From an uncultured Candidatus Saccharibacteria bacterium (GTDB taxonomy: Bacteria; Patescibacteriota; Saccharimonadia; Saccharimonadales; UBA4665), in contig CAYUNY010000001.1 in assembly GCA_964446315.1 (NCBI GenBank), positions 1 to 29,565 on the forward strand: 29,565 bases of DNA. The letters run 5' to 3'. The notes under the pieces are model-generated. The model saw nothing but the letters and a program-made list of their open reading frames with translations, did no database searches and was not told the origin of the DNA. Positions 3,310 through 21,083 of the stretch are shown in pieces (the first letter of the stretch is position 1; each line of letters opens with the position of its first letter). Both the position numbers and the translations under genes were made by a program.

Positions 3310-4374
<1,065 letters not shown>

Positions 4375-4375
<1 letters not shown>

Positions 4376-4926
4376 TGGCAAACGAACTGGCAGTGCGCGA
4401 AACCGAGATACCCGGCATGTTCGTCATTGACCTGGTACTGCACGGCGACCAGCGCGGTTGGTTCAAGGAAAATTACCAGCAAGCAAAAATGGAAGAGCTG
4501 GGCCTGCCGCATTTCGAGCCGGTGCAGAACAACTTTTCATACAACGCCGAGCGCGGCGTCACCCGCGGCATGCACGCCGAGCCCTGGGAAAAATTTATTT
4601 CGCTGGCCAACGGCAAGGTTTTTGGCGCCTGGATCGACTTGCGCAAGGGCGACAGCTTTGGCAAGGTATTCACCATGGAAATCACGCCAGAAGTAGCCAT
4701 TTTCGTGCCCCGCGGCGTGGCCAACGGCTACCAAACGCTAGAAGAAAACATTACCTACACCTACCTGGTTAACGACCACTGGTCGCCGGATGGTAATTAC
4801 GCCTCGGCCCACATGTTTGATCCCCAGTCAGCGATCCCCTGGCCTATCCCCGAATCGGAGGCTATAATCTCTGAAAAGGATACCAAGAATCCACTGCTTA
4901 AAGATGTACCGCCGATGGAGTTTTAA
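4375..4926 (+). CDS. rmlC: dTDP-4-dehydrorhamnose 3,5-epimerase
   Basis: HGDQRGWFKE, QNNFS, GVTRGMHAEPW, DLRKG, VPRGVANGYQTL. TGATG overlap with rmlB. Confidence 0.95.
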
Positions 4927-5780
4927 TGAACGATTCTGAGATTTTTATTGTCGGCGCTAATGGCCAGCTGGGTACGGCGCTCAAAGCCAAGTACCCCGGC
5001 GCCCAAAGTGCCGATATCGACGAAATGGACATTACCAAGGCCGAGTCGGTGACCAATTTTGATTGGAGCGGTATTAAATACATCCTAAACGCCGCCGCTT
5101 TCACCAACGTTGACGGCGCCGAAACGGCCGAGGGCCGCGTGGCCGCCTGGAATGTTAACTCCGCCGCCGTAGCCAACCTGGTGCGCGCCGCCACGGCCCA
5201 CGATATAACAATGGTCCATATTTCTACCGACTACGTCTTTGACGGCACCAAAGCACCGCATAGCGAAGACGAACTATTCAGCCCGCTCAGCGTTTATGGC
5301 CAGAGCAAGGCCGCCGGCGACCTGGTAATCAGCCTGCTGCCAAAACACTATGTTCTACGCACCAGCTGGGTTATCGGCGAGGGCCCGAACTTTGTACGTA
5401 CCATGTTGGGACTGGGCCAGAAGGGCGTCGCGCCCACCGTGGTAGCCGACCAAGTCGGCCGCTTGACCTTCACCGACGAGCTGGTTAAAGCTATTGATCA
5501 TCTGCTAGCCAAACAGGCGCCTTATGGCACCTACAACGTCAGCAACGGCGGCGAACCGGCCAGCTGGGCCGACATTACCCGCCAAATTTTTAAAGACGCC
5601 GGTTTCGACCTAACCGTCACCGACACCACGACCGCCGAGTACTACGCCGGCAAAGACGGCATCGCCCCCCGCCCCTTGCAAAGCAGTTTCGACCTGTCTA
5701 AAATCCAGGCCACAGGCTTTACGCCAACCGACTGGCAAGAAAACTTAGCGTCTTACGTTAAAAAGGAGTTGGCAATATGA
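4926..5780 (+). CDS. rmlD: dTDP-4-dehydrorhamnose reductase
   Basis: [60 protein letters not shown] overlap with rmlC. Confidence 0.95.
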
Positions 5781-6637
5781 AAGGTATTATTTTAGCCGGC
5801 GGTTCCGGCACCCGTCTCTACCCTATCACTAAGGGCATCAGTAAGCAGATTATGCCCATCTATGACAAGCCGATGGTTTACTACCCGCTCAGCGTGCTCA
5901 TGCTGGCCGGCATCCGCGACATCCTGGTTATTACCACGCCCGACGACCAGCCGCAGTTCCAGCGCCTACTGGGCGACGGCTCCGACATAGGCATAAAGCT
6001 GACTTACGCCGCACAGCCGGAACCGGGCGGCTTGGCGCAAGCCTTTATTATCGGCGAGGAATTTATCGGCGGCGATAAGGTAGCCCTGGTTCTGGGCGAT
6101 AATATTTTCTACGGCGAGTCGTTTGGCTACAGCTTGAAGGAATGCGTCGATCCCGACGGCGGCATAGTCTTCGCCTACAAAGTTTCCGATCCGGAACGCT
6201 ACGGCGTTGTTGAATTCGACGATCAGCACCAGGCCGTTTCCATAGAAGAAAAACCGGCCCATCCCAAATCCAATTACGCCGTAGTCGGCCTCTATTTTTA
6301 CGATAACGAGGTGGTCGAAATCTCCAAAAATCTCAAGCCCTCGGAGCGCGGCGAGCTGGAAATCACCAGCGTCAACGAAGAGTACTTAAAGCGCGGCAAG
6401 CTTAAGGTGCAGACCATGCACCGCGGCTCGGCCTGGCTCGACACCGGTACTTTCGAATCAATGACCGACGCCAGCGAGTACATCCGGGTGATCGAAAAGC
6501 GCACCGGCTTAAAGATAGGTTGCATCGAAGAGATCGCCTGGCGCCAGGGCTTCATTAACGACGAACAGCTCAAAAAGATCGCCGAACCGCTGGTTAAATC
6601 CGGCTACGGTAAATACATTCTGTCGCTGACCAAGTAG
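5777..6637 (+). CDS. rmlA: Glucose-1-phosphate thymidylyltransferase
   Basis: [64 protein letters not shown] overlap with rmlD. Confidence 0.98.
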
Positions 6638-6699
6638 CCTCGCTTATATATTAGCCGACGATACTATATTAATAGTGAAGGTACTTAATTACGCTACTG

Positions 6700-6705
6700 T
6701 ATACT
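6700..6705 (+). promoter_or_regulatory. -10 box (TATACT) for the membrane-protein pair
   Basis: TATACT lies 7 nt before the ATG at 6713, in an AT-rich 75-bp spacer. Confidence 0.5.
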
Positions 6706-6712
6706 TTAAATA

Positions 6713-8071
6713 ATGACCTCAAAACGCAGTGGTTCTGCAGGAGCCGATTTTAGCGTCAAAATTGCTAAGCTGTTCCCTAAACAAAGCTACGATAAGGTGG
6801 TTGGATTCTTAATTTCATCTAAAAATTATAGATTCTTTAATGTTGTCTTGCTTTTACTTATCGCCGGCTTTTATGTTCTTAGGGCCCACCAATATTTACT
6901 CCGCCCCCAATTATATGCCGAGGATGGTACCCTTTGGCTGGCCGGCGCATATAATCAAGGGGTAGGCTCTGCCTTCCAGGCGTATCACGGGCTATCGCAT
7001 TTATTTGATCGGCTGTTCGGCCTGGTATCGATTCACCTTGTACCATTTCAGTACGAACCATTGTTATACGTTGTATCTGCCCTACTGATTTTTCTTCTTA
7101 TGAGCTACTACCTGCTGTCCGAAAGAAGCGGTATATTAACTACCAACTATCAAAAGTTGTTTTTCGCACTTTCATTGTGCTTGCTGGGCAATGCCGAGGA
7201 GTTCTATTTTAGCTTTTCCAATTCAGCGTTTTTGCTCGGCATTGTTGGACTCTTGATTTTGGTAATAAATAAGTCTCGCCACAAAACCGTCAACACATTA
7301 GAAAAAATTCTATTTTTCATACTTTGTTTTACGAATGTTTTTGCCTGGATATACATTATTATCTTAGCCTTTGAATATATCTGGAAGCGCCGTCGAAGAT
7401 ACTATTACATAGCCTGCGCTCTTACAGGCTCTATCACGCAGTTATTGATTCATATGCACCAGACGGCAGGCCAGAGACCAGATATTCCAACGCGTTACAT
7501 AGCGTCAAAAGCCACTCTGTTTGAATTCTATAATCAGATTATTATGCCTTCTTTACGGTTCGGGCGACAAGATATAAACCCGTTAATCCGTACCAAGGCT
7601 GATCTGGTTTTTGTTTGCCTGGCCCTACTTTTGAGCGGTAGCATTGTGGCATTTATATTCGTAAAATCTAATTATAGAACGAGGTGCCTGCTCTTTTTCT
7701 GTCTCATGATGACCCTAATCAGTCTCAAAAGCCCTATTAATGACCAGACTGCCCCAGCGGCGATTGTTATAGCTATGGCTACGTATCACTGGGGTAATAG
7801 GTACTTTATTTTCGGAATTCTCGGCATGTTTGTTGTTTGGGCAAAATTCAGCCAACGATTATTCAAGAAACAGCATCTCCCGGCCTTTTTGCTAGTCTTC
7901 TTTTCTTTCGGTTTGTTTTCTTCAATGACCCTCGGCTCGTTTAATATACAAAAATACTTCACTGATTTGAGTAAACAATATTCCCAGGGAGCGGCACAGC
8001 TCAAGCAGCCCAAGCACAAGAGGGTAGTTATACCCATTAATCCTACCGGTTGGTATATAGATATCCGATGA
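6713..8071 (+). CDS. Polytopic membrane protein, putative GT-C-fold glycosyltransferase (paralog A)
   Basis: About 10 hydrophobic segments. An acidic PQLYAEDG motif follows the first TM helix, with GNRYF later and a C-terminal IPINPTGW. Lies near gtrA and a Dpm1-like GT2. Confidence 0.6.
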   Translation: MTSKRSGSAGADFSVKIAKLFPKQSYDKVVGFLISSKNYRFFNVVLLLLIAGFYVLRAHQYLLRPQLYAEDGTLWLAGAYNQGVGSAFQAYHGLSHLFDRLFGLVSIHLVPFQYEPLLYVVSALLIFLLMSYYLLSERSGILTTNYQKLFFALSLCLLGNAEEFYFSFSNSAFLLGIVGLLILVINKSRHKTVNTLEKILFFILCFTNVFAWIYIIILAFEYIWKRRRRYYYIACALTGSITQLLIHMHQTAGQRPDIPTRYIASKATLFEFYNQIIMPSLRFGRQDINPLIRTKADLVFVCLALLLSGSIVAFIFVKSNYRTRCLLFFCLMMTLISLKSPINDQTAPAAIVIAMATYHWGNRYFIFGILGMFVVWAKFSQRLFKKQHLPAFLLVFFSFGLFSSMTLGSFNIQKYFTDLSKQYSQGAAQLKQPKHKRVVIPINPTGWYIDIR

Positions 8072-9351
8072 AATTCTACGCGAAAATAAATAAGTTCTTA
8101 GCTTCGTCTAAACAGTCGAGATTATTTAACAGTGGCTTGATTCTACTAATAGCTTCATCTTATATTATTAGAGCCTACCCGTATATTTTGCATCCTCAAC
8201 TTTTTGCAGAAGATGGCGATGTTTGGTTATCGGTTGCTTACAATCTCGGGCTTAAGTCTATATATCAGGTATACAATCAATTTTTGCAATTATTTGAGTG
8301 GCTGTTCAGTCTGTTTGCGGTTCATTTTGTTCCGCTACAAATCGTACCGCTCTTTTTCGTAGTGTCGGCCTTATTGATGTTTTTGTTGTTGTGTTACTAC
8401 CTCTTTTCTCAAAGAAGTGGCGTACTTAATACTAACTACCAAAAATTATATGTTGCCCTGTCGCTTTGCTTACTGGCGAATGCCGGGGAGCTTTTCTTTA
8501 ATTTTTCGAACGCAGTTTTCTATCTTGGACTAGTCGGGCTTTTTATCATCATTGTTAATAAATCAAAAAACAAATACGTTAACCTCCTGGAAAGAATCTT
8601 ATTTTTTGTACTCTGCTTTACGTCAGTTTTTCCGTTTGTGTATCTGGTTATTTTGCTCATTGAGTTGCTGTGGTATCGCAGGAAGAGGTATTACTACCTG
8701 GCATGTGCTGTTGCAGGATCAGTTGCTCAATTTATAGCTTTCATCTCTTATCCGTTGCAAAGACATAATATTCCTCTGCACGAAATCGCTTCAAGAACCA
8801 CGGGCGTAGAACTATACAATCAGATTATTAATCCTTCTTTGCGCTTTGGACGGCTCGATATAAATCCCCTGACAAGTACTCTATCCAGCATTAATTTCGC
8901 ATTTATTGCTGTCGTCCTGGTCGGAATAATAAGTCTGGCTATTTTTTACAAGTCCAATTATAAGACAAAGTACCTATTGCTCTTTTGTTTACTTATGACT
9001 TTGATAAGCCTGAGAGGCCCTGCCGATATAGAGAGTGTGGCAGTTATGGCAACCTCTCTTTCAGGAAATAGGTATTTTATCTATGGAATAATCGGGATGT
9101 TCGTCGTCTGGGCAAAGTTCAGCCAAACACTCTTTAAAAAAGATCATCTGGCTGGATTTCTACTAATCTTTTTTGCCTTCGCCACCATTTCATCCATTCG
9201 GCTTGGCTCGTTTCTCATACAAAAGGGCTGGATGGACCTTACAAAGGAGTACTCGACGGGGATCACCGAGTTTGATCATAATAGAGACCGAGGCATAAAG
9301 ATACCGGTAAACCCCCCGGGTTGGTACATCGTTTTCTTGCCTAAGAAGTAG
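8068..9351 (+). CDS. Polytopic membrane protein, putative GT-C-fold glycosyltransferase (paralog B)
   Basis: Colinear with paralog A (PQLFAEDG, TNYQKLYVALSLCLL, GNRYFIYGIIGMFVVWAKFSQ, IPVNPPGW). Start moved to ATG 8068 because of the ATGA overlap with the paralog A stop. Confidence 0.6.
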   Translation: MKFYAKINKFLASSKQSRLFNSGLILLIASSYIIRAYPYILHPQLFAEDGDVWLSVAYNLGLKSIYQVYNQFLQLFEWLFSLFAVHFVPLQIVPLFFVVSALLMFLLLCYYLFSQRSGVLNTNYQKLYVALSLCLLANAGELFFNFSNAVFYLGLVGLFIIIVNKSKNKYVNLLERILFFVLCFTSVFPFVYLVILLIELLWYRRKRYYYLACAVAGSVAQFIAFISYPLQRHNIPLHEIASRTTGVELYNQIINPSLRFGRLDINPLTSTLSSINFAFIAVVLVGIISLAIFYKSNYKTKYLLLFCLLMTLISLRGPADIESVAVMATSLSGNRYFIYGIIGMFVVWAKFSQTLFKKDHLAGFLLIFFAFATISSIRLGSFLIQKGWMDLTKEYSTGITEFDHNRDRGIKIPVNPPGWYIVFLPKK

Positions 9352-9361
9352 TCGCGTGGAC

Positions 9362-9916
9362 TTAAGCTATTACTAGCTCTTCTTCTTTGCTCTCTTCGGT
9401 TTCATGGCCACGAAATACCACGTACTTGTACAAGAGATAGTTCCAGGTCATGCCGATTAACACTGCTGTAAGTTTTGTGCCCAAAAGCTGAAGGGCTTTG
9501 AAGGTTATGGGGTGTCCAGCCGCCATAAAAGTACTGGTCTTATTAATAACCCATAGTTTGTCTGTTACTAAATATATGACGAGGTCTTGGATAAGAATAA
9601 CCCCCAGGCCGGTTACTAAAAAGAAGTGCGCATACTTTTTTAATGAATAGTCGCCATGGTGGCGAAACACAATTCGGTGATTGAGAAAGTATGAAACCGT
9701 TATGGCGATGCTGACCGATAAACTATTGGCTATAATTGGCGACCAGTTAAAAATTTTAACTATCGCGAACAGTAAACATATATCGAATGTGGTGTTAAAG
9801 CTACCGATCACTAGAAAACGAGTTATCCTACGTTCCCATAACTTTTTAACCAAATGCAACATACTGCTCTTTAAATACTTTCCTCTTTGGATGAATTTCT
9901 TGTTACTATTGTACAT
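9362..9916 (-). CDS. GtrA-family lipid-linked sugar translocase
   Basis: RFLVIGSFNT, ANSLS..VSYFLNHRIVF and WNYLLYKYVVF, with 4 TM segments. The start is uncertain (GTG 9931, ATG 9925, 9916 or 9862); 9916 has GATAAT 7 nt upstream. Confidence 0.85.
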   Translation of the reverse strand: MYNSNKKFIQRGKYLKSSMLHLVKKLWERRITRFLVIGSFNTTFDICLLFAIVKIFNWSPIIANSLSVSIAITVSYFLNHRIVFRHHGDYSLKKYAHFFLVTGLGVILIQDLVIYLVTDKLWVINKTSTFMAAGHPITFKALQLLGTKLTAVLIGMTWNYLLYKYVVFRGHETEESKEEELVIA

Positions 9917-9954
9917 GAAGACCATTATCACTTAATGCGCTGAAAGAATCGTTT

Positions 9955-10701
9955 GTGAAGAAAATTGCTATTGTTACTCCTACCTATAATGAAGCAAGCA
10001 ACATTAAGAAACTGATATTAGGTATTGAGAAGGCATGTAAGGGTCTTGGTGATTTATCATTCACCTTATTTGTTATCGACGACAGCTCGCCCGACGGCAC
10101 GGCGCGCGTCGCAAAAGAAGTTGCCAAAAAGATAAGTGCCAAGAACTTTAACGTGCGGGTACTGGTTCGCAAGACTAAAGAAGGCGTAGGCAAGGCCTAT
10201 GTTCACGGTTTTCATGAGGTGCTCAAGCAGGACTTTGATTTCCTTATACAAATAGATGCCGACCTGTCGCACAACCCAAAATATATTAAAGACCTTGTTG
10301 CCCAGGCGCGTTTGGGCAAGGATTTCGTATCAGCCTCCAGATACATCAAGGGCGGAGGGATTTCCGACTGGGGTCTACACCGAAAAATTCTGAGCCGCGG
10401 AGCTAATATCTACACAAGAACATTTTTAAGCGGCCGGATTACCGATTATACGAACGGCCTAAATATGTTTAGCACCGCTCTGTTAAGAGAAATCGATGTT
10501 GATACTCTCAGTTCAGCCGGCTATGGTTTCTTTATAGAACTTAAGTACAAAGCCCTGCAACATGCTAGGCATTATGCGCAAATACCGATCATTCTAACCG
10601 ATCGAAAACACGGCAAATCAAAGATGCCTAAAAATGCCATTGTCATAAATCTTTTACTGGTGCCGCGCTTGCGCCTGGTTGGCCAGAAGAAAACGAGTTA
10701 G
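9955..10701 (+). CDS. GT2 polyprenol-phosphate glycosyltransferase (Dpm1/Ppm1-like)
   Basis: VTPTYNEASNI, IDDSSPDGT, GVGKAYVHGF, IDADLSHNP, SASRYIKGG, DYTNG and the terminal DRKHGKSKM. GTG start; no C-terminal TM helices. Confidence 0.88.
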   Translation: MKKIAIVTPTYNEASNIKKLILGIEKACKGLGDLSFTLFVIDDSSPDGTARVAKEVAKKISAKNFNVRVLVRKTKEGVGKAYVHGFHEVLKQDFDFLIQIDADLSHNPKYIKDLVAQARLGKDFVSASRYIKGGGISDWGLHRKILSRGANIYTRTFLSGRITDYTNGLNMFSTALLREIDVDTLSSAGYGFFIELKYKALQHARHYAQIPIILTDRKHGKSKMPKNAIVINLLLVPRLRLVGQKKTS

Positions 10702-10703
10702 CG

Positions 10704-11984
10704 CTACTTTTTCTTGCGGGTAGGCTTGGATGAAGCCAGGGAGTAAGTAGAAAATTCTGGAGCTGGGAAGATCATTACTCCTCCCTTTTCCAAATATTTG
10801 TGTTCACGGTCAATAAACGTTTGCCTGAAGAACCAGGGTAAAATTAACAGGTAATCGGGCTGTTTCTTTCGCATGTCGGCTTCAGAATAAATAGGAATGT
10901 TGGTGCCAATGGTGTGGCGTCCCCATTTAACTTCCTGTTTCTCGGCGATGCCATCTACCAGGCTGTCGTCGAGTCCGAACATCTGTAGCAAGGTGTTACC
11001 TTTTGTGCTGGCACCGTACCCCCAGACAGATTTGCCCTCTGCCTTAGCCTGTTTAATGAAGTCGGCTGTTTGCTTCTTGAGCGCCAAAATTCGCTTATAA
11101 AAGTCGGTGTACACTTTTTTAGTGTTAAAGCCTTCGCGTTCTTCCCAACCTAGCAATGAATCTACCCTTATCTTACAAATGTCACGGTCGGCAGGTGTCA
11201 GATAATTATCGGGGGCGCCTTGCTTTTGCAAGTACAGTCTAATTGAACCGCCATTAACGTTGTTAAGCTCAACGTCTTTGATAACGAAACCGACCCGGTC
11301 CGTCAGCCATTTCAATGATGTCAGGTTATAGTAACAGAGGTGCTCATGGCAAATAACACCAAGTTCGGTCTGCATGATGTTGGCCGGAGTGTAAGAAACC
11401 TGCAGTGTAAACAGACCATCGTCCTCGAGAATCTCATAGACGTCCTTTAGGAAACTCTCGGGGTTATCGACATCATAGAAACAGGCCGCACAACTGACTC
11501 GTGAGGCTTTGGTATAGCCGGCTTTTTTAAATGCTTTGGCAGAGAAGTATTCTCGAATGTTAACATCGGCATTGTCCTTTGCTTCGGGATAATCCGAAGG
11601 GTCAATACCAACGCGTAGATACTTCTTTTTATCGACTGTAGATAATAGGTAGCCGTCGTTGGAAGCAATGTCAACATAGACCGATTTCTCGCTTTTTTCG
11701 GGGATGGACTTACAGGTTTTTTCTGCCAGATCTTGCAGTGCCTCACGCATGGCCGGGTTTACGGCGCTACGGTAGTAATACATACTGCCCCACATTAATG
11801 CGGCATCGGGCTGTTTGGTTAGTTGCACGGCCTTGCTAACCGGGTCGAAGCCAAGGGCCATTTCGCAGGGTGGCCCCTTTGGTTTTTCGCCCTTTTTTAA
11901 AAAGTCAGACACATAAAGTTCGCCGACACTAAAGAGAGGCTCTAATTTCGCCCCAGATACCACGCTTTTTCTGTACTCCGTCAT
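10704..11984 (-). CDS. NDP-hexose C-methyltransferase-like SAM-dependent enzyme
   Basis: YYYRS, VDIASNDG, ICHEHLCYY, NGGSIR, GYGASTKGNTLLQ and LILPWFF match the three-domain sugar 3-C-methyltransferase layout. The N-terminal Zn-site cysteines appear replaced. Confidence 0.85.
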   Translation of the reverse strand: MTEYRKSVVSGAKLEPLFSVGELYVSDFLKKGEKPKGPPCEMALGFDPVSKAVQLTKQPDAALMWGSMYYYRSAVNPAMREALQDLAEKTCKSIPEKSEKSVYVDIASNDGYLLSTVDKKKYLRVGIDPSDYPEAKDNADVNIREYFSAKAFKKAGYTKASRVSCAACFYDVDNPESFLKDVYEILEDDGLFTLQVSYTPANIMQTELGVICHEHLCYYNLTSLKWLTDRVGFVIKDVELNNVNGGSIRLYLQKQGAPDNYLTPADRDICKIRVDSLLGWEEREGFNTKKVYTDFYKRILALKKQTADFIKQAKAEGKSVWGYGASTKGNTLLQMFGLDDSLVDGIAEKQEVKWGRHTIGTNIPIYSEADMRKKQPDYLLILPWFFRQTFIDREHKYLEKGGVMIFPAPEFSTYSLASSKPTRKKK

Positions 11985-12113
11985 GAATAAATATACTATC
12001 AGATAATGGTGGTTCTACAAATAATTCGTTTGTGGTGAGTCAGATAGGTTTTGACTGGTAAAGTGTGAAGAAAAGTACTACAATAGTGTTGCAAGTCTAG
12101 TAAAATAAATACT

Positions 12114-12665
12114 GTGAAACAGCTAAAAAATTTCCGCGCCAAACACCCGTTTGCTTATATAACTCTCGTTCTGATAGTTATGGCTATTGCCGTGTTCGTA
12201 TTGCTAGAAGTTACCAATACGACCCACATATTCCACAAATCGTCTAAGCTGGCGACGGCCCGCAGTAAAGACTACAAGCCAAGCTCTCCTACAAGCACGA
12301 ATCAAGGCGGTGCTGTTGATAAAAAAGGTGCTCCTACTCCAACAACTGAAACAACAAGCTCAGCACAATGGACCACTTCCACCTCTGGGGTCATTACCCT
12401 GCAACAACCGGTAGCTAACACGACCGTCAATTCGGGTGACACCTTGCGGGGTACCGCCGAAACTGATACTATCCAGTACCGCCTTGTTGACGACAAAGTC
12501 GGCATTATTGCTCAGGGTTCTTTAAGCGTTGTTGGTGGAAAATTCTCCGGGGTATTGCAGTTTAACGCGCATAGTACTACCGGTGAACTGAAAGTATTCA
12601 GTATTGACCCTCAATCCGGAGCCGAAATTAACCACGCCGATATTAAGATCAATCTTAATCCATAG
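12114..12665 (+). CDS. Membrane-anchored exported protein: N-terminal TM, Ser/Thr/Pro-rich linker, C-terminal Ig-like (Gmad2-like) domain
   Basis: TM segment AYITLVLIVMAIAVFVLL; linker SSPTSTNQ..PTPTTETTSSAQWTTSTS; beta-rich ITLQQP..LRGTA..YRLVD..G..GELKVF. GTG start with TAAAAT 7 nt upstream. Confidence 0.6.
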   Translation: MKQLKNFRAKHPFAYITLVLIVMAIAVFVLLEVTNTTHIFHKSSKLATARSKDYKPSSPTSTNQGGAVDKKGAPTPTTETTSSAQWTTSTSGVITLQQPVANTTVNSGDTLRGTAETDTIQYRLVDDKVGIIAQGSLSVVGGKFSGVLQFNAHSTTGELKVFSIDPQSGAEINHADIKINLNP

Positions 12666-12682
12666 AAAGGCCGTTATAAGTA

Positions 12683-14929
12683 ATGTTCCAGCGTAAAAAG
12701 CCGTTTAGCCTTCTCACTGCTAGTCTGCTGGTATTGGCTTCGGTGCTAGGTTCACTCCTTCTGCCACAAGACGCACATGCTGCATATATAGCAAGCGATC
12801 TTATCGACAATATTATCTTCACTAATGCCGGCTCTATGGACCAGGGCCAGATTCAGACCTTTTTATCTGGTAAAGGTGGCTACATAGCTGGCTATTCGAC
12901 TTTCAGCGGCCGGGATGGTGGTAATGTACCAGCCTCGCGGATTATTGCCGAGGCCGCCTCGGACTATGGTATTAATCCGCAAGCTATTATGGCGACTCTG
13001 CAAAAAGAACAAAGCCTTGTAACGGATCCTAGCCCCAGCCAGTCTCAACTTAATTGCGCCATGGGATATTTATCTTGCGATGGTAGCCACAACTCCTTTT
13101 ATTCACAGGTTGATGCCGGAACATGGCAACTTCGCTACAGCTATGAAGCAAGTAGCGGTCGGGCTTGGGGTGGTCACTCTGTGTCTGAATACCCTTGCAA
13201 AAATGCCACCAACCTTTATTCTGCTGGCCTTTACCCAGGCAACACTGTTACTTTCTATAACAGCCCTGGTGGCTCGGCCAGGACAATTACTCTAGCTAAC
13301 GCGGCTACTGCTTCTCTCTATTGCTACACGCCTTACGTTGGGCCCTATAGTCAGACTGGCTATTCCGGTAGCTATAATTTTGTGATCAACTTTGAGGCTT
13401 GGTTCGGCAGTACCTTAGCATCCCCACTTGTGAAGTCATCAAGTAGCCCTAGCATTTATCTCCTTGATAGCGACGGCCAGACGCTACACCCGATCCCTTC
13501 GTATGACATAATGAGTGCGTTCGGATTATCGAGTACGCCGGTTACTGTTGTAAATTCATTGTCGGACTTTACCGTTGGTTCGACATTACATACTCTGATA
13601 CAAAGATCCGATGGCGGCATTTACTTAGTTGATCATGGCGTGAAGTATGCCATTAACAGTGGTGCTACCTGTACCAACTGGGGATTGGGCTGTTTCGACA
13701 CGAATCAAGTAACTACTGGCATGGGTGACAGAACCGTTGACGCAGTTCCTGTGGCCGGCACACTACCGGCACTGCAGAACAATAACGGCGCGGTTTACCT
13801 AATGAAAAATGGTAATAAGGAGCCGGTGATCAGCCCATCCGCGCTGTTTGAACTAGGTTATGGCTGGGGCGATGTAGCGCCAATTAGCAATTACAATAGT
13901 ACCCAACCGCTAGGGCCGCTACATATTCCCAATGGCATGGCTGTGAAATATAAATCTGGCGATGGCATATATCTCTATGACAACGGTGCTTATAATGCAA
14001 TTCAGGACATTAACCTTGTGTCGGCCTGGAACTTGAATGTTATCGCTAACCCCCCGGCTTCCAGTTATGACACGACACCACCACCCGTTTCCAGTGATGT
14101 TTTGTCCAATTTTGCTACCGATGGAAGAGACACCTACCTGATAGATCAGGGCATGAGAAAGTACATAACGTCCGGATTATCAGCGTGGACCACTGGATCG
14201 ACTCATATTACCAGTTTTGCCCACGCCGCTCTGGCTAAGCTACCAAGCTCATCCGCGACTACAATAATCCGGGCTGCTAGCGGCGGCATTTATGCCCTAC
14301 AGAACGGCGCTAAACGTCCTATACCTTCCTTTAATGACTTTTATGGGCTGGGGCTTAGCCCGAGCCAGCTAACTAACGTTTCTGATTACACTGCTTCGAC
14401 CCTCGCAACTGGCAATGTAGACCTGCCTGATTCGGCTCTGTTCCAGGTCAGTGGCAACCCAGGCATCTACCTGGTAAATAATCAGGGCGCCACCTGGCTC
14501 AGCACGCCAAACGACTTTTCCTATTTCGGTTTCAATTCGCGCGCCGTCGAGCAATTCCCCTCAAGTGTACTAACGGCATATCCTGCCAGTAGTGACGGGC
14601 TATTGGTGTTGGTCAGAAACGACAGCGGCCAGGTTTATACAGCCAGCAACGGCACCTTGTATGTCCTGAGCAGTAAGATCGTGAACGACTGGGGATTGGG
14701 GAGCGCTTCACCCACTCTCCTGAGCAATAAAAACCTATCCAGCCTCGGTAAATCGAATATGACTAATTTCGCACGCACGCCGAGCGGCTCCATCTACTAC
14801 GGCCAAGGCGGTTCTGCGCACCCGATCTCTAGTTACAACGAATTCTTGAGCTTAGGCGGTAGCTCCAGTAATACCATCAACGTTGCGCCTGAGTTTATTG
14901 CACTGTGCCCCGTTGGCTCAACACTGTAG
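12683..14929 (+). CDS. Secreted surface protein: signal peptide, putative lysozyme-like/cell-wall-hydrolase domain, nine ~55-aa repeats
   Basis: Signal peptide ending AHA-A. N-domain motifs IIFTN..SM..QIQTFL and YGINPQAIMATLQKEQSL. Repeats follow from aa ~249 to the C-terminus. Confidence 0.65.
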   Translation: MFQRKKPFSLLTASLLVLASVLGSLLLPQDAHAAYIASDLIDNIIFTNAGSMDQGQIQTFLSGKGGYIAGYSTFSGRDGGNVPASRIIAEAASDYGINPQAIMATLQKEQSLVTDPSPSQSQLNCAMGYLSCDGSHNSFYSQVDAGTWQLRYSYEASSGRAWGGHSVSEYPCKNATNLYSAGLYPGNTVTFYNSPGGSARTITLANAATASLYCYTPYVGPYSQTGYSGSYNFVINFEAWFGSTLASPLVKSSSSPSIYLLDSDGQTLHPIPSYDIMSAFGLSSTPVTVVNSLSDFTVGSTLHTLIQRSDGGIYLVDHGVKYAINSGATCTNWGLGCFDTNQVTTGMGDRTVDAVPVAGTLPALQNNNGAVYLMKNGNKEPVISPSALFELGYGWGDVAPISNYNSTQPLGPLHIPNGMAVKYKSGDGIYLYDNGAYNAIQDINLVSAWNLNVIANPPASSYDTTPPPVSSDVLSNFATDGRDTYLIDQGMRKYITSGLSAWTTGSTHITSFAHAALAKLPSSSATTIIRAASGGIYALQNGAKRPIPSFNDFYGLGLSPSQLTNVSDYTASTLATGNVDLPDSALFQVSGNPGIYLVNNQGATWLSTPNDFSYFGFNSRAVEQFPSSVLTAYPASSDGLLVLVRNDSGQVYTASNGTLYVLSSKIVNDWGLGSASPTLLSNKNLSSLGKSNMTNFARTPSGSIYYGQGGSAHPISSYNEFLSLGGSSSNTINVAPEFIALCPVGSTL
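13427..14926 (+). repeat. Nine degenerate ~50-60-aa protein repeats
   Basis: Recurring unit x-(L/I/F)-x-x-(S/N/D)-(G/P)-x-(I/V)-Y-L-x-x-x-G-x-x-x-x-I...(F/W/L)G. Examples: SPSIYLLDSDGQ, DGGIYLVDHGV, NGAVYLMKNGN, GDGIYLYDNGA, RDTYLIDQGM, SGGIYALQNGA, NPGIYLVNNQG, SGQVYTASNGT, SGSIYYGQGGS. Confidence 0.8.
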
Positions 14930-14960
14930 AGTATTTCAACCAAGCTTCTCTTAGACTCTG

Positions 14961-17900
14961 TTATTTAGTACTCACATAGTTCCAGATGGTATCGAGCTGT
15001 TGAGACCAGGTATATCCTAGAGATTGAAGACCATTCTTGGCAATTTTATCCCTTAGTACCTTATCGTCAACTAGTAACGAAATCTTTTCGGCCATAGCCG
15101 CAGGTGAAGGCTCGCTTAATAAGCAATTTACCCCGTCTTTTAATAACCAGAGGTTATCTTCGTTATTGTTTGTAACTGTAGCCATACCGGAAGCCATAAA
15201 CTCGAATGGCTGATATGAGGGGTGCTTAGACAGCATATAAACAAACCCTATGTCGCAGTTCCTATAAAGGTCCGCTACTTCGTCTATAGATTTTAATAGC
15301 CCGAGATTGAGTATTTTGCCTCGTAGGCCGAAGTCGCCATCCGACCAATTAGCACCTGCTGTAATTATTTCTATCTTATCACCGTATTTTTTGATCAAGC
15401 GCTTCATAATATCTATGCCCAAATTGAAAGCATTGCGGGGATTATTGGGTCTGGCATAAAAGAAAACGCGAACCTTCTTGTCAGTCCTCTTATAGGCGAG
15501 CGGTCTGTATAAGGTTTGGTCTACCGCAGGAATGAAACTAACTCCTTCTGTCCCGTGACGCTGATTTATAGCAGCAAGAAGACCGGGCGTGTTGACTAGG
15601 CCTTTAAAGCCAAATCGATACGTTGACTCAGCCAGCGCATAGGTTGAGCCCGCTTGGTAAAAAAGTGGCTCGTAATCCTGTATAAAGTAGTACTTTCTTT
15701 TTGTCTTGTTGAACTTTAACAAGAGGTAGGCCGAGACCCAGAAGGAACAAATTGCGACATCACACGCTGGTAGATCATCCAGGTCTTGATAGGCCGGGTC
15801 AAAGATTATGAGTTCGTATTTATCAAGTTTGGGAAACTTCAGACTAATCTCTTTTTTAAGCTTTTCCACGTCAAACGAGGGGTTGTCGTAGATAATGATG
15901 CGGTTGTGCACACCCTCCTTAGAAAATTTTTCAATAAACCTGAAGATGGTGAAAATGCCTCCAAAACTAAGATGGTCGAAATTCGGCACAAACCAGTTTG
16001 CCGTTGATACCTTTTCGAGCTGATGAGCGGTAATTTGTTTGTTGCTTCTTGTAATGTCAGCTTCAGTTATTTGAAATATCTTATTTGAAACAAAGTTATA
16101 TTCTTCCCTAAGTTCTTTGCTGGTCATCATCTTTGAGCGCCTTGGCGCGAGGCGGTTTAAGGCCCTTAGGCGATATCTTGTGGTACTACGTAGCTTTCTA
16201 GCTACACCCTTGGGTCCGTGATTACGATACGTGTGAATTGCTTTCTGTACGGCTCCGCTCATTGACGTTGTGTCCAGTCCTATCTGTTCATTCATTAGGT
16301 CTAGGTTGATATTAAAGTAAGGGTCTCTACCGCCTAGATATGGGCGGTAATACTTCAGGGAATGATCATAATCTAATTGTATGCCATTATCGTAAGAACC
16401 GACAGAGAGGTTCTCGTGGTGAATGAGTTCGGCAAAGGGCCAGTATATGTTCCTATAGCCGGCTTCGTGCAAGCTTATGCCCAGTGCGACATCGTTTCCT
16501 GCCACTAAAAATGTTTCGTCCAAGCCCCCCACTTCCTTATATTTAGCATGCTCTATGGCGAGGCACGCTCCAGTGACTGCCAAATAATTTCGTGGCCATG
16601 CCGGCATACCAAAGTCAGTCCAGTCCGTTAAAAGTCTATGTCGAAAAACATGGCCGGCCATAACTTTCATACCTACAATAATGCCCGCGTGTTGAATCGT
16701 CTTATTGGGGTAATAGAGAAGTGGGCCAACTGCGCCAACGCCTTGCTGTGATGCAACGCCTATAAGTTCTTCTAACCAATCTGACGTTAGGACCTCGGTA
16801 TCGTTATTGAGCAAAACAAGGTATTCACCGCCTGCCTGCTTACTACCAAAGTTATTGATTGCCGAATAATTAAAGGGGTGGTCCCATAGATATATCTTGC
16901 ATTTTTCATTTAACTTTAAGGTATTTAAGTATTTGTGCGTTTCTTCTTCCTTGCTATTGTTTGAAACTAGAATGATTTCATAGTTTTTATAAGTAGTCTT
17001 GGACAATATGCTACCAACGCACTGCTTGAGGAGGTCTGGCTTGTCCTTAAAGGGAATTATGATTGAGACTTTTGGTTGCTTCGCAGGCAGTTTGTACTTT
17101 AACCGATAGTTGGTTGGTCTATTGCGTATCTCAAGGACATCTGCCTCTAGTTTTCTCCTTTCGACCGCATCGGCCAGCGCTCTGCGACCAGCTGTGTCGG
17201 CATAGTCTTTTTCTCCAACATTTTTTGATGTTGAGCCATCAGCTAGGCGCCAATGGTACAAAATTTTAGGAATGTGCCCGATTCTATCGGTTTTTTCCGT
17301 GAAACGAAGTAGAAAATCGTAGTCTTGTGCGCCATCAAAGCCCGGACGCAGACCACCGATCTCGTCAACTATTGCTTTCCTAGCAACAACAAAATGCGTA
17401 ATGTAATTCACGCCTAGCAATAGATCAGGTGACCAGTTTGGTTTAAAAAATGGTAGTGAGCGTTTTTCGCCATCATCGCTGAGCTTATCCTCATCTGAAT
17501 ATACTAAATCCAGCTTTGGGTCCCAGTTTAGTACACTCACAACCTCGCTAAGCGCAAATGGCGAAAGAACATCATCATGATCTAAAAACGCAACGTACTC
17601 ACCGCTTGCATTATCTATGCCAATATTCGTATTGCCTACAATGCCGAGGTTCTCCTTAACATCAATGTATTTGATCCGCTTGTCTTGCCTGGCAAGCTCC
17701 TTAATACTGTTTTTTGTGGCCTGTTGATCTGAGCCGTCGGCGAGACAAAGTTGCCAGTTTTGATAGGTCTGATTGATAACGGATTCTAATAGTGGTGATA
17801 TATATTTCTTGGGCGTGTTAAAGCATGGCATCACAATAGATATTAGTGGCCCCTGATTTTCATGATTGTGTTGCGAATCAGCGTTATCTGCTTCAAAAAG

Positions 17901-18020
17901 CCTTGGTTCGACTTTATCAATCCAGGCTTGGTAATCTCTCTTATCTTTTTTCCAGCCTTTAGCGCGCGAAACCATGCCTATAACCCACGGATTTTTTGAC
18001 TTTAGGATTCTTTTCTTCAA
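14961..18020 (-). CDS. Tri-domain glycosyltransferase GT2 + GT2 + WsaF-like GT4 (putative rhamnan polymerase)
   Basis: First GT2 from aa ~59 (ISIVMPCFNT, FLDHDD, YSDEDK, FKPNWSP). Second GT2 from aa ~317 (VSIIIPFKD, FNYSAINN, LLNNDTEV). GT-B from aa ~670 (FGGIFT, YFIQDYEPLFY, AESTY, RPNNPRNAF, SKHPSYQPFEFMASG). TTG start; alternative ATG at 17975. Confidence 0.88.
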   Translation of the reverse strand: MKKRILKSKNPWVIGMVSRAKGWKKDKRDYQAWIDKVEPRLFEADNADSQHNHENQGPLISIVMPCFNTPKKYISPLLESVINQTYQNWQLCLADGSDQQATKNSIKELARQDKRIKYIDVKENLGIVGNTNIGIDNASGEYVAFLDHDDVLSPFALSEVVSVLNWDPKLDLVYSDEDKLSDDGEKRSLPFFKPNWSPDLLLGVNYITHFVVARKAIVDEIGGLRPGFDGAQDYDFLLRFTEKTDRIGHIPKILYHWRLADGSTSKNVGEKDYADTAGRRALADAVERRKLEADVLEIRNRPTNYRLKYKLPAKQPKVSIIIPFKDKPDLLKQCVGSILSKTTYKNYEIILVSNNSKEEETHKYLNTLKLNEKCKIYLWDHPFNYSAINNFGSKQAGGEYLVLLNNDTEVLTSDWLEELIGVASQQGVGAVGPLLYYPNKTIQHAGIIVGMKVMAGHVFRHRLLTDWTDFGMPAWPRNYLAVTGACLAIEHAKYKEVGGLDETFLVAGNDVALGISLHEAGYRNIYWPFAELIHHENLSVGSYDNGIQLDYDHSLKYYRPYLGGRDPYFNINLDLMNEQIGLDTTSMSGAVQKAIHTYRNHGPKGVARKLRSTTRYRLRALNRLAPRRSKMMTSKELREEYNFVSNKIFQITEADITRSNKQITAHQLEKVSTANWFVPNFDHLSFGGIFTIFRFIEKFSKEGVHNRIIIYDNPSFDVEKLKKEISLKFPKLDKYELIIFDPAYQDLDDLPACDVAICSFWVSAYLLLKFNKTKRKYYFIQDYEPLFYQAGSTYALAESTYRFGFKGLVNTPGLLAAINQRHGTEGVSFIPAVDQTLYRPLAYKRTDKKVRVFFYARPNNPRNAFNLGIDIMKRLIKKYGDKIEIITAGANWSDGDFGLRGKILNLGLLKSIDEVADLYRNCDIGFVYMLSKHPSYQPFEFMASGMATVTNNNEDNLWLLKDGVNCLLSEPSPAAMAEKISLLVDDKVLRDKIAKNGLQSLGYTWSQQLDTIWNYVSTK

Positions 18021-18048
18021 TATAAGTATGCCCTGCTCTCGCCACTAG

Positions 18049-18999
18049 TTATTTTGGGGAAATTTTAGCCTTGGTGCTAGAAAGTCGCTTTGCAAGCCTC
18101 CATGCTTTACTTTTTTTAATATTATCAAGATCGGTCTTATGTTTGTTTAGTTCAGCGATCTGCTCTTCTTTAGCCTTCAAGATACCCTCGTAGTGGCTGA
18201 TTGTATCCTTTATGTATGCTTGTAATTCGTCCCCCTGTTCGCCAACTTGTTTAGAGCTCCAATGTTCTGAAAGCACACCAATAGGGCTTATCGATTCTTG
18301 TATCGGTTCGTCAGAACATATCAACATGAAGAAAAGTACCTGCTCCGGCTTCAGGGGCGCAGCATTAATGATTCTGATTTTTTCATCGCTCTCTTCAAAA
18401 ATCATCTTATCGTTACTGACTCCGCTATAAAGCCATGTGCCTTGGTAATAAGAGTCAACGTATTTAAAGTGTTTTTTTAAGAAATCAACGAGTTCTTTGT
18501 GCTCATACTCATGTACATGGAAGTGATTACCTTCTGGAAACTCCAGATCGTTTGGGGTAGAAAGAATGAGCTGTCCCTTGGGCTTAAGCACTCTTTTTAT
18601 CTCCCGCAAAAACTTCTCTGCTTCTTTAATGTGCTCCAACGTTTCAAATGTTACGACACTTTCTACCGAGTTATTATCAATCGGTATTTTGGTTCCGCTA
18701 CCAACCTTAAAGGTAATGTTAGGGTTATTAAAATTTTTCTTGGCGTACTCTACGGCCCCCTTGTCAATGTCAACTCCGTAAACCTCGTTTGCTGTTTGGG
18801 CAAGCATTTGTGTGCCATATCCCGACCCGCAAGCAATATCAAGAATAGTTTTTCCCTTAACCAGTGGTGCCGCAGACTGGTATCTGGCTATATGGTCGCC
18901 GTATGCAATGGTAGCTTTGTGGTGCTCAGGCACCATCCTCTCTCCATCGTTAGGCAGTTCTACCTTTTTCTTGTTCGTGGTTGGCTTCGGTGTTCGCAT
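18049..18999 (-). CDS. Class I SAM-dependent methyltransferase with C-terminal coiled coil (putative glycan chain terminator)
   Basis: ERMVP..HIARY, ILDIACGSGYGT, VTFETLEH, LILSTPN, NHFHVHEY. The tail LKAKEEQIAELNKHKTDLDNIKKSKAWRLAKRL is heptad-like. Confidence 0.85.
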   Translation of the reverse strand: MRTPKPTTNKKKVELPNDGERMVPEHHKATIAYGDHIARYQSAAPLVKGKTILDIACGSGYGTQMLAQTANEVYGVDIDKGAVEYAKKNFNNPNITFKVGSGTKIPIDNNSVESVVTFETLEHIKEAEKFLREIKRVLKPKGQLILSTPNDLEFPEGNHFHVHEYEHKELVDFLKKHFKYVDSYYQGTWLYSGVSNDKMIFEESDEKIRIINAAPLKPEQVLFFMLICSDEPIQESISPIGVLSEHWSSKQVGEQGDELQAYIKDTISHYEGILKAKEEQIAELNKHKTDLDNIKKSKAWRLAKRLSSTKAKISPK

Positions 19000-19008
19000 A
19001 TGACCTCT

Positions 19009-19037
19009 ATTCTAACTTCGTTGGTGCAAGTAAACAA
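19009..19037 (-). promoter_or_regulatory. Putative internal sigma70-type promoter for the methyltransferase/polymerase pair
   Basis: TTGTTT (19037-19032), a 17-nt spacer, TAGAAT (19014-19009), then 9 nt to the ATG at 18999. Confidence 0.45.
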
Positions 19038-19059
19038 CCTGCGCAGTAGTTGTTCTCAT

Positions 19060-20280
19060 TTACGCAACGCCAATGACGATATCGTGCTTAGCGTTGATGA
19101 AAGTTCCGTTTTTAACTTTTTTACGTACTCTAAATTTGCAGCTGGATTCAGCCCAGTCAAGAATAGTGGTCCCGTCACTATTTGCGATTGCCGGAGCAAC
19201 AGAAAACGTTCCTGAGTTAAAAACATTGGGTATGCGCCATTGAAGCGTTGTGGTAGTGCCCGCTTTTAGCTCAACCGTCTTTACGTGATTAATCATTGTG
19301 TTGGAGTTGAATACTCGGTGCTCATCTTCATCCGAAATAATGATGCCATAAACAGGCTCATTAATATTTTTATTTGCTTTGTATGTAACTTTGATAAGAA
19401 TGGTGCTGTCCTCGTCTGCAAAGTCAGCCTTTGTCTTCATGTCTTCGCCAAGCGCAGTGGCACTAATAACGCGGGCGTCTCCAGTGCCCCAGCGTGTCTT
19501 AGTCTTAGCTTTTTCCTCTGCCTTTTTCTTTTGGTCCTCGCTTGCATTTAATACATCCATGTACTCGTTTACAACTCTGTCTATTTTGTCATTGGTCACA
19601 ACCTTGCCCTGCTCAAGCAATAGTCCTCTATCGCAGTATTTTAGTAAAGCATCGCTGTCGTGACTTACAAAAATTACAGTCTTTTTGTCCTGTTTGAGCT
19701 GTCTAAAGTAGTCGTAACATTTTTTTTGGAAGAGTGAGTCGCCTACGGCCAAAACTTCGTCAATGAGTAACACATCTGATTTTGCACGTATAGCAATCGA
19801 AAAGGCTAGCCTTACCTGCATGCCTGAAGAGTAGTTTTTTAACTTCTGGTCCATGAAACGCTCAATCTCGGCAAAATCAACGATGTCACTGTACATTGTG
19901 TTCATCTCTTTCCTCGAGAAACCGAGAAGAGCGCCATTTAGAAAAACATTTTCGCGGCCAGTGAGCTCGGGGTTAAAACCAACACCAAGCTCTATGAAAG
20001 GTGTCAGTTTGCCGTTGATAGAAATACTTCCTTCGCTGGGAGAGTAGATTCCTGCCAACATTTTAAGTAAGGTGCTTTTACCACTACCGTTACGTCCAAC
20101 GATGCCAAAGAATTCTCCTTTTCTTACTTCAAATGAAACATTCTTAAGCGCATGTTGCTGCTCAAATGTTAGCTTTCGCCTGTAGAAATTAAGCACCGCG
20201 CTTTTGATAGAGGTGTTTTTTTCGTGAGGTAGCTTAAACGTTTTACTCACATTTTCCACTTTAATTGCGACATCTGACAT
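19060..20280 (-). CDS. wzt: Polysaccharide ABC exporter ATP-binding subunit with C-terminal Wzt_C-like domain
   Basis: Walker A GRNGSGKST, ELGVGFNPELTGREN, signature YSSGMQVRLAF, Walker B LLIDEVLAVGD, VSHD. A ~160-aa beta-rich extension starts RWGTGDA. Confidence 0.95.
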   Translation of the reverse strand: MSDVAIKVENVSKTFKLPHEKNTSIKSAVLNFYRRKLTFEQQHALKNVSFEVRKGEFFGIVGRNGSGKSTLLKMLAGIYSPSEGSISINGKLTPFIELGVGFNPELTGRENVFLNGALLGFSRKEMNTMYSDIVDFAEIERFMDQKLKNYSSGMQVRLAFSIAIRAKSDVLLIDEVLAVGDSLFQKKCYDYFRQLKQDKKTVIFVSHDSDALLKYCDRGLLLEQGKVVTNDKIDRVVNEYMDVLNASEDQKKKAEEKAKTKTRWGTGDARVISATALGEDMKTKADFADEDSTILIKVTYKANKNINEPVYGIIISDEDEHRVFNSNTMINHVKTVELKAGTTTTLQWRIPNVFNSGTFSVAPAIANSDGTTILDWAESSCKFRVRKKVKNGTFINAKHDIVIGVA

Positions 20281-20282
20281 GG

Positions 20283-21083
20283 TTATATGTTCTCCGCGAA
20301 GTACTTTGATTCTTTACGGAAATAGCTGATACCTCCGACTAGCGCCAGTATAACGACCAGAAAGGGCAGGAATTGATACCAGCCGCCTTGGAAGATTTGG
20401 TGGGCGGTGGTTGCGTCATGGGTTATGGCAGCGTATCGTGCGTCTTGGATGGCTTGGCCCATAGGATTAATTAAAATTAGTTTCTGGAAGGTAAGATTTG
20501 GGATCTGAGATAACGGATAAAGTATGGGCGTTAGATAGAAGCCTGCTTGTAGAATCACCTCCCAGATGTAGTTAACGTCTCGGAATTTTACAAAAGCCGC
20601 CGAAAGAAACATTGACAACCCTAGAGCAAACAAATAGACCTCGACCAAAATAAGCGGTACCCAGAGTATTGTGGGCGTCACGTCGACATGGTTAACAATC
20701 ATGAAGACGATGATCACTATAAGGTTTAAGAAGAGGTTGATTAGCGCTGAAATGCTACTGCTGAGCACAATTATCCATCTTGGTATTTTTATCTTGCGGA
20801 TCAGGTCACCCCGTCCCACGATTGAGCTAAGGCTTTGTACGGTCATTTCGTTAAAGAAGTTCCAGATGACGATACCAAGCAATAGATAGACCGGATAGTG
20901 CGGAATGCCAGCGCCGAGTTTCAGGAATTTTACAAATACTATGTAAAGGATTACGAAAAGTAGTAGTGGGCGTAGTAGCGACCAAGCGTAACCAAGGGCG
21001 GAACCCTGGTAACGTAGCTTGAAATCGGTGCGAACCAGCTCGCTGAGCAAGGCACGGTTCTGCTTGGAGTAAATGTGACGCAT
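20283..21083 (-). CDS. wzm: Polysaccharide ABC exporter permease (Wzm/RgpC-like)
   Basis: DFKLRYQGSALGYAWSLLRP, RGDLIRKI, FRDVNYIWE, YLTPILYP, NPMGQAIQDAR, FAENI; 6 TM segments. Confidence 0.95.
   Translation of the reverse strand: MRHIYSKQNRALLSELVRTDFKLRYQGSALGYAWSLLRPLLLFVILYIVFVKFLKLGAGIPHYPVYLLLGIVIWNFFNEMTVQSLSSIVGRGDLIRKIKIPRWIIVLSSSISALINLFLNLIVIIVFMIVNHVDVTPTILWVPLILVEVYLFALGLSMFLSAAFVKFRDVNYIWEVILQAGFYLTPILYPLSQIPNLTFQKLILINPMGQAIQDARYAAITHDATTAHQIFQGGWYQFLPFLVVILALVGGISYFRKESKYFAENI

Follow-up and report, generated by a model that had tools for sequence, protein, structure and literature searches.

Wall hydrolases that join a catalytic domain to binding repeats follow a known plan. 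EpaU of Enterococcus faecalis, an autolysin of glycoside hydrolase family 25 (GH25), is encoded in the epa rhamnopolysaccharide cluster, and its strain-variable binding domain binds that polysaccharide (PMC13343894). PlyC, the endolysin of streptococcal phage C1, consists of PlyCA and a ring of eight separate PlyCB subunits (PDB 4f88/4f87), and the ligand of PlyCB is the polyrhamnose backbone found in wall carbohydrates of streptococci (bioRxiv 10.1101/2021.03.19.436156). The enterococcal phage endolysins LysIME-EF1 and Lys170 (PDB 6ist, 7d55), which have a CHAP/amidase catalytic domain, gain multivalency from extra copies made from an internal start codon, and multimerisation of the binding domain of LysIME-EF1 is needed for lysis (PMC7098653). 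Here we describe a gene of this plan in a stretch of 29,565 nucleotides (nt) from an uncultured Candidatus Saccharibacteria bacterium (GCA_964446315.1, contig CAYUNY010000001.1; the whole stretch is referred to as the window). It encodes a secreted protein of 748 amino acids (aa) with a lysozyme-like N-terminal domain (N-domain) and nine C-terminal repeats, and it lies in a glycan locus directly behind the gene for a membrane-anchored partner. Both domains are undescribed in curated libraries, and the co-inheritance of the N-domain with the partner is unusual for such enzymes. We lean towards the view that the protein is an autolysin which docks on rhamnan made by the cell itself and is under the control of the partner. 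In Saccharibacteria, which live as obligate epibionts and have tiny genomes, the construction, remodelling and use of the envelope are, to our knowledge, poorly understood.

A first-pass annotation made from the sequence alone had described a signal peptide, a ~200-aa domain with several Cys and nine ~55-aa repeats, with neither a transmembrane segment nor an LPxTG anchor, and this layout was confirmed. The Sec signal peptide reads MFQRKK followed by a hydrophobic core and a cleavage site between AHA and A. Hydrophobic 19-residue windows above 1.6 start at aa 7-11 only, with no second hydrophobic segment, and no LPxTG anchor was found in the 748-aa protein. The N-domain comprises 214 aa with Cys residues at positions 125, 132, 172 and 214, and the repeats extend across aa 249-748. 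Homologs of the protein are named Candidatus Saccharimonadales, Saccharibacteria or Patescibacteria. The source genome assembly (738 kb, 106 contigs, 84% complete) holds one copy of the N-domain.

An AlphaFold2 model of the N-domain, built on an alignment of 98 homologous domains, had a predicted local distance difference test (pLDDT) value of 94.1 and a predicted template modelling (pTM) score of 0.92. The α-rich two-lobe fold is superposable on lysozymes, lytic transglycosylases or GH73 enzymes, in line with the lysozyme-like fold proposed earlier. The top matches in an all-against-PDB structural alignment (scores in brackets) were LytB (GH73; 7pj3; 9.8), the Clostridioides difficile endolysin glucosaminidase Ecd09610 (8yxk; 8.2), the tail-tip lysin of phage Andhra (7.9), MltF (7.7), Atl (6fxo; 7.3), the lysin of phage P68 (7.0) and PlyCA (6.5). 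Identity to the GH73 N-acetylglucosaminidases LytB, AtlE (4pi7), Ecd09610 and Atl is 12-14%, and, unlike these enzymes, the N-domain has an extra N-terminal hairpin and four conserved Cys. Matches in the AlphaFold Database had template modelling (TM) scores of 0.7-0.8 with E-values of ~1e-13; relatives found there are fused to LysM, LGFP, LPxTG, wall-binding repeats, NlpC/P60 or S11 peptidase, and some are automatically named GH73-like glucosaminidase.

In lysozyme-like enzymes, the residue acting as general acid is found at a helix C-terminus. Glu109 of the N-domain occupies such a position in the model, at the end of the helix formed by aa 99-110, and conservation counts over 244 family members, 50%-identity cluster representatives included, showed that it is invariant (244/244) and the sole invariant carboxylate of the family; the first-pass annotation had noted this Glu after a helix, as in lysozyme-like or lytic transglycosylase folds. 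K108, A126, G128, Q142, Y215, T216 and P217 are ~100% conserved, Y213 is at 99% and C214 at 96%, and C132, C172 and C214 are each conserved in at least 95%. The YCYTP motif may be the counterpart of the YATD motif of GH73.

At the sequence level the N-domain lies outside both GH73 and the soluble lytic transglycosylase (SLT) families. PF01832 (GH73) gave no match with the protein at E-values up to 1 or with the N-domains of the 98 relatives at E-values up to 10, and is absent throughout the source genome. The motifs KEQS, AMGY and YCYTP resemble the ES, GLMQ and AYNxG motifs of SLT and lytic transglycosylase families (PF01464, PF19489) without being identical to them, and by sequence the protein is not a member of either family. 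Neither the N-domain nor the repeats scored above cut-off in Pfam, NCBIfam or PHROGs, and a PDB sequence search with the N-domain profile returned chance-level matches only. An exhaustive profile search yielded 4,623 N-domain cluster representatives (clusters at 50% identity) at E ≤1e-3; the N-domain is a large lysozyme-like family, unnamed in curated libraries, with a fold closest to GH73. A GH19 identity was rejected since in the weak alignment the catalytic position of GH19 falls on a residue that is not acidic, and a recent phage origin is unsupported, as a viral structure library gave no close relative (best E-value 0.02).

A second N-domain subtype of ~280 aa carries the motif LQKESS and is ~31-33% identical to the one studied here (proteins P0002-P0004, P0248 and relatives, in the related loci L002, positions 10001-12328, and L088, positions 9945-12368). 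It is equally widespread and is fused to nine repeats or to bulb lectin, ricin, CARDB, DUF5648, SLAP or LGFP modules; one member is called 'hemagglutinin-like protein' by NCBI.

An iterated repeat profile gave nine separate matches in the protein with domain E-values of 2e-7 to 2e-15, so that the description as nine repeats is correct, far beyond chance. The repeats are 52-59 aa long and rich in Ser, Thr, Asn and Gly, and the profile finds 3-11 copies in each of 35 relatives. The model of the 504-aa repeat region (pLDDT 90.8, pTM 0.67) shows a unit consisting of a hairpin, a strand and a short helix, which superposes on repeats R1-R4 of EccB, a component of ESX/type VII secretion systems (PDB 3x3m, 4kk7, 5cyu, 7nps), or on PlyCB. 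In a Foldseek search with the repeats the ten best PDB matches were all EccB of ESX systems (E-values 8e-7 to 3e-5, probability 0.97-1.0), and a sequence profile of 144 repeats had EccB1 as its top PDB match (E-value 2e-4), aligned on R1 and R4. The global TM-score with EccB is low (0.12-0.15), and thus the units match whereas their arrangement differs. PF05108, the EccB family, scored above cut-off on one repeat of two paralogs and had no match in the studied protein, which, unlike EccB core components, lacks the transmembrane segment and the central domain and instead joins a lysozyme-like head to nine repeats behind a cleavable signal peptide; the window contains no ESX genes. In contrast to PlyC, the nine units are arranged in tandem in one polypeptide, a CHAP domain is missing, and the protein is cellular, near-universal and encoded in a glycan locus rather than by a phage; sequence similarity to PlyC is undetectable. 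Tandem repetition also sets it apart from LysIME-EF1 and Lys170 with their internal start codons.

Fusions of the repeats in the AlphaFold Database include N-acetylmuramoyl-L-alanine amidases, a PGRP-type domain, RlpA, GH73-like domains, LysM, S11 DD-carboxypeptidase and secreted proteases. As the repeats are combined with so many wall enzymes, they appear to be a general wall-targeting module, and the analogy with PlyCB suggests that they bind a wall polymer, possibly polyrhamnose. We know of no ligand for the EccB-type repeat, even in mycobacterial ESX systems, and the present work suggests a ligand class for it. The fold of the repeats, like the conserved gene upstream, had gone unnoticed in the first-pass annotation; its proposal that the repeats could bind the glycan made by this locus gains support, all of it indirect, from the PlyCB/EccB fold, from the co-occurrence with rml and WsaF genes and from the swaps of C-terminal modules described below.

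Repeat 2 contains a Cys-x6-Cys pair (window positions 13670-13693, aa 330-337) that is kept in the consensus of 23 nine-repeat proteins (CTxWGxxC). The pair probably closes a disulfide-bonded loop specific to that repeat position, which suggests that the nine repeats are not equivalent.

The gene upstream encodes a protein with an immunoglobulin-like (Ig-like) ectodomain behind a membrane anchor, which matches Pfam Gmad2 below cut-off (E-value 1.8e-4) and whose nearest Atlas clusters are Saccharimonadota hypothetical proteins and Gmad2 clusters. In 67 of 79 loci a homolog of this partner (~190 aa) is encoded immediately before the hydrolase gene and in the same orientation; the gap is mostly -4 to +11 nt, typically a 4-nt overlap or a spacing of less than 12 nt. 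Comparison of the window with locus L002 revealed that protein identity is 66-89% for the flanking genes and 86% for the repeat region, compared with 31% for the N-domain, and that the partner ectodomain is not alignable; at the DNA level, 85% identity to L002 returns precisely where the two domains meet, at window position 13442. The closest N-domains (70%) and the closest partner ectodomains (70-72%) are both found in L005 and L007, which carry bulb-lectin versions of the gene. In a Mantel test of pairwise distances across 35 loci the N-domain co-varied with the partner ectodomain (r 0.70; 0.65 when controlling for Wzm); for comparison, the distance correlation was 0.75 for Wzm and Wzt, the two components of the ABC exporter of the locus, 0.37 for the N-domain and Wzm, and 0.41 for the N-domain and Wzt. 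By these sequence comparisons, the divergence of the N-domain next to conserved repeats together with the co-variation, the partner ectodomain is inherited together with the N-domain, as a cassette separate from the repeats of the same gene. This co-inheritance argues for a physical or functional pairing, either of a regulator with its enzyme or of an immunity protein with its enzyme.

Of 301 sampled genomes of the class Saccharimonadia, 244 encode the N-domain, as do 222 of the 259 high-quality ones. Most have a single copy, and this distribution suggests that the role is a housekeeping one. Relatives at 33-66% identity, and likewise the bulb-lectin version, always have the gene behind the ~190-aa partner open reading frame (ORF), within a glycan locus that includes Wzm/Wzt. 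Between relatives the C-terminal module differs: it can be a set of about nine EccB-type repeats, a bulb lectin (alone or with an Ig domain), ricin, FG-GAP/VCBS, CARDB, DUF5648 or LGFP. Among 201 genomes of the order, ~18 carry the full nine-repeat version, in ORFs of 789-854 aa and with a patchy spread over families. The idea that the N-domain family is the sole glycan-strand cleaver of its genome was rejected, as MltG/YceG was found in 5/5 genomes checked; SLT proteins are present in some of these and GH25 is absent. N-domain homologs also lie on contigs labelled Acidimicrobiales, Actinomycetes or Gaiellales (L024, L033, L077, L078, L080, L086). L024 and L033 are 53% identical, keep the partner gene and may be mis-binned Saccharibacteria contigs, and the more distant ones are without the partner gene.

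The glycan locus around the gene, already recognised in the first-pass annotation, comprises rmlBCDA upstream and Wzm/Wzt downstream, and the gene itself is flanked by a sugar C-methyltransferase, a family 2 glycosyltransferase (GT2) and GtrA on one side and by GT2-GT2-WsaF on the other. Two GT-C-like membrane proteins complete it, as does a methyltransferase encoded downstream on the opposite strand. Its genes are those of an ABC-transporter-dependent locus whose polysaccharide contains L-rhamnose. In loci with long flanks, scored for rmlC, rmlD, rmlA+B or WsaF within ~12 kb, such genes were found near the repeat version in 6 of 8 cases and near other versions in 3 of 36 (naive Fisher p 3e-4); a seventh repeat-version locus, L004, has rmlD at the locus edge. 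About five phylogenetically independent pairs point in the same direction and none in the opposite one, so that an association of the repeat version with rhamnose genes is suggestive. An exception is L037 (JBJHCT010000003.1), an eight-repeat orthologue with its partner and with no rml, WsaF, Wzm or Wzt gene within ~10 kb.

These results can be brought together in the following model. The protein would be exported by Sec and held non-covalently at the wall, where the GH73-like head would cleave peptidoglycan glycan strands with Glu109 as general acid. The nine repeats would provide multivalent, individually low-affinity binding to a rhamnose-containing wall polysaccharide, most likely the product of the same locus with its rmlABCD, GT2-GT2-WsaF and Wzm/Wzt genes. 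If the polysaccharide is indeed the cell's own, the enzyme would act on its own wall as a remodelling or cell-separation autolysin, and the Ig-like membrane-anchored protein would be its cognate partner, probably restraining or positioning the catalytic domain. We consider this somewhat probable because a constant catalytic head is combined with variable lectin modules that track the sugar genes of the producer, because the N-domain is near-universal and single-copy, because the gene lies inside a biosynthetic locus, and because EpaU sets a precedent. EpaU likewise is an autolysin encoded inside a wall-polysaccharide cluster with a variable wall-binding domain; it differs in its catalytic family, in its binding domain and in that no upstream Ig-like partner has been described. 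Several observations weigh against the model. The N-domain reaches no curated family: SLT_4 (PF19489) stays sub-threshold on it (13.7 bits, cut-off 27), as it does in 28 of 98 relatives (13.7-16.5 bits), and a comparison of the N-domain profile with E. coli FlgJ (GH73) by hhalign found nothing (probability 0.1), so that Glu109 could not be mapped by sequence. Nor could Glu109 be superposed, residue by residue, on the catalytic Glu of a known enzyme, the fold tools returning ranges only. The rml association rests on few loci, with a median p of 0.06 in the sign test, and falls short of proof because physical linkage alone could produce it. Finally, actinobacterial hosts carry rhamnose-rich wall polysaccharides as well, L-rhamnose blocks host binding of Nanosynbacter lyticus through a factor other than PilX2 (bioRxiv 10.64898/2026.10.06.756255; PMC11623550), and the exchange of partner and catalytic domain as one cassette resembles toxin-immunity systems.

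The last three points lead to a different view, namely that the protein is a lysin directed against hosts or competitors. Its repeats would recognise a rhamnose-rich polysaccharide in the wall of the actinobacterial host, or in that of competing epibionts with the same glycan on display, the N-domain would open the peptidoglycan of the target cell at the contact site, and the partner would be an immunity protein guarding the wall of the producer. Exchange of the partner ectodomain with the catalytic domain between conserved repeats and flanks, at a Mantel correlation comparable to that of Wzm and Wzt, is the pattern of polymorphic effector-immunity pairs, and the structural neighbours of the N-domain include Tse3, a muramidase effector of the type VI secretion system, and phage tail lysins. 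In addition, L-rhamnose abolishes host binding by TM7x species-specifically and independently of PilX2, and a wall polysaccharide made by the host itself contains rhamnose (bioRxiv 10.64898/2026.10.06.756255; PMC11623550). Accessory weapons, however, are not near-universal and mostly single-copy in a class as the N-domain is, which makes the effector-immunity logic atypical despite the co-inheritance; moreover, the C-terminal module tracks the glycan genes of the producer, the gene is part of the biosynthetic locus and has no linked delivery system, and a homology search for orthologues in cultured strains (TM7x, TM7-008, BB004, Southlakia) gave proteins from metagenome-assembled genomes only. 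The Esr host-defence paper holds nothing on hydrolases. Taken together, a host- or competitor-directed lysin appears rather unlikely. Of the earlier suggestion of a host-cell-wall-binding hydrolase, the wall enzyme is supported by the fold and by the fusion partners, and its target may be the wall of the cell itself or that of the host. Somewhat less likely again is the specific version in which the repeats are a rhamnose-sensitive host-recognition device, the head breaches host peptidoglycan at the feeding junction and the partner protects the wall of the epibiont as an immunity protein; were it true, swaps of lectin modules and of enzyme-immunity cassettes would drive host range and competition between epibionts.

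Two further explanations dispense with peptidoglycan cleavage. A glycosidase that trims or releases the rhamnan of the locus would be expected to change with its substrate, yet the N-domain stays constant while the glycosyltransferases and sugar pathways of the locus change, which argues for a constant substrate; as its relatives are also fused to the peptidoglycan-specific LysM, NlpC/P60 and S11 DD-peptidase and its best structural matches are peptidoglycan enzymes, we regard this activity as improbable. Scarcely more credit, and if anything a shade less, goes to a non-catalytic surface-layer or adhesin glycoprotein serving as acceptor for the glycosylation machinery of the locus. The Ser, Thr, Asn and Gly content of the repeats and the GT-C-like or PMT-like membrane proteins encoded nearby in this and related loci would fit such a role, but an invariant Glu within an active-site-like motif set over 244 sequences is unexpected for a structural protein, both domains have wall enzymes as fusion partners, and no S-layer family was matched. 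The S-layer role considered in the first-pass annotation is therefore not upheld: a wall enzyme is what the fold, the near-universal single copy and the proteins to which both domains are fused point to.

The gene pair is among the few near-universal secreted enzymes of the class, and, on the autolysin reading, a targeting module exchanged to match the glycan locus would offer a model for how wall hydrolases are addressed in Saccharibacteria. The protein is also a candidate for the rhamnose-sensitive step in host attachment. The features of the gene and its surroundings are collected in Table 1. A promoter and terminator scan gave output no better than shuffled sequence.

Table 1. Positions of the hydrolase gene, its parts and the neighbouring genes in the window.
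Feature	Window position	Strand	Basis
rmlB, rmlC, rmlD, rmlA (dTDP-L-rhamnose pathway)	3377-6637	+	Pfam
Partner gene, 183 aa: N-terminal membrane anchor, Ser/Thr/Pro-rich stalk, Ig-like Gmad2-type ectodomain	12114-12665	+	
Cassette: partner ectodomain, signal peptide and N-domain	12240-13440	+	identity comparison
ORF of the 748-aa protein	12683-14929	+	open frame
Sec signal peptide, aa 1-33	12683-12781	+	read from sequence
Lysozyme-like (GH73-like) catalytic domain, aa 34-247	12782-13423	+	predicted
TLQKEQSL motif	12995-13018	+	sequence
Glu109 codon GAA, candidate general acid, KEQS motif	13007-13009	+	invariance, helix end
YCYTP motif, aa 213-217	13319-13333	+	conservation
Repeat 1, aa 249-303	13427-13591	+	repeat profile
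Repeat 2, aa 304-361, with Cys330/Cys337 pair (CTNWGLGC)	13592-13765	+	repeat profile
Repeat 3, aa 362-419	13766-13939	+	repeat profile
Repeat 4, aa 420-474	13940-14104	+	repeat profile
Repeat 5, aa 475-526	14105-14260	+	repeat profile
Repeat 6, aa 527-585	14261-14437	+	repeat profile
Repeat 7, aa 586-641	14438-14605	+	repeat profile
Repeat 8, aa 642-694	14606-14764	+	repeat profile
Repeat 9, aa 695-748; superposes on the cell-wall-binding domain (CBD) of LysIME-EF1, PlyCB and the Lys170 CBD	14765-14926	+	
GT2-GT2-WsaF-like glycosyltransferase (WsaF-type, rhamnosyltransferase-like)	14961-18020	-	Pfam
Wzt (with C-terminal glycan-binding domain) and Wzm ABC exporter	19060-21083	-	Pfam

Different parts of the locus (window positions 3377-21083) have their nearest counterparts in different related loci: L003 for Wzm, Wzt and RmlA; L002 for the repeats, the C-methyltransferase and the second GT-C-like gene; and L005 and L007 for the partner and the N-domain. 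Such a mosaic indicates that Saccharimonadia lineages often recombine here, as happens in O-antigen and capsule loci. A GT-C-type membrane protein is encoded just upstream of the pair of partner and hydrolase in the window (positions 6713-9351) and in L003, L006 and L088; in relatives it is assigned to DUF2142, PMT or YfhO. Its gene is divergent in L003 and L006 and lies on the same strand in L088, there with rmlA in between. The protein may carry out extracytoplasmic glycosyl transfer to the polymer or to the Ser/Thr-rich proteins of the pair.

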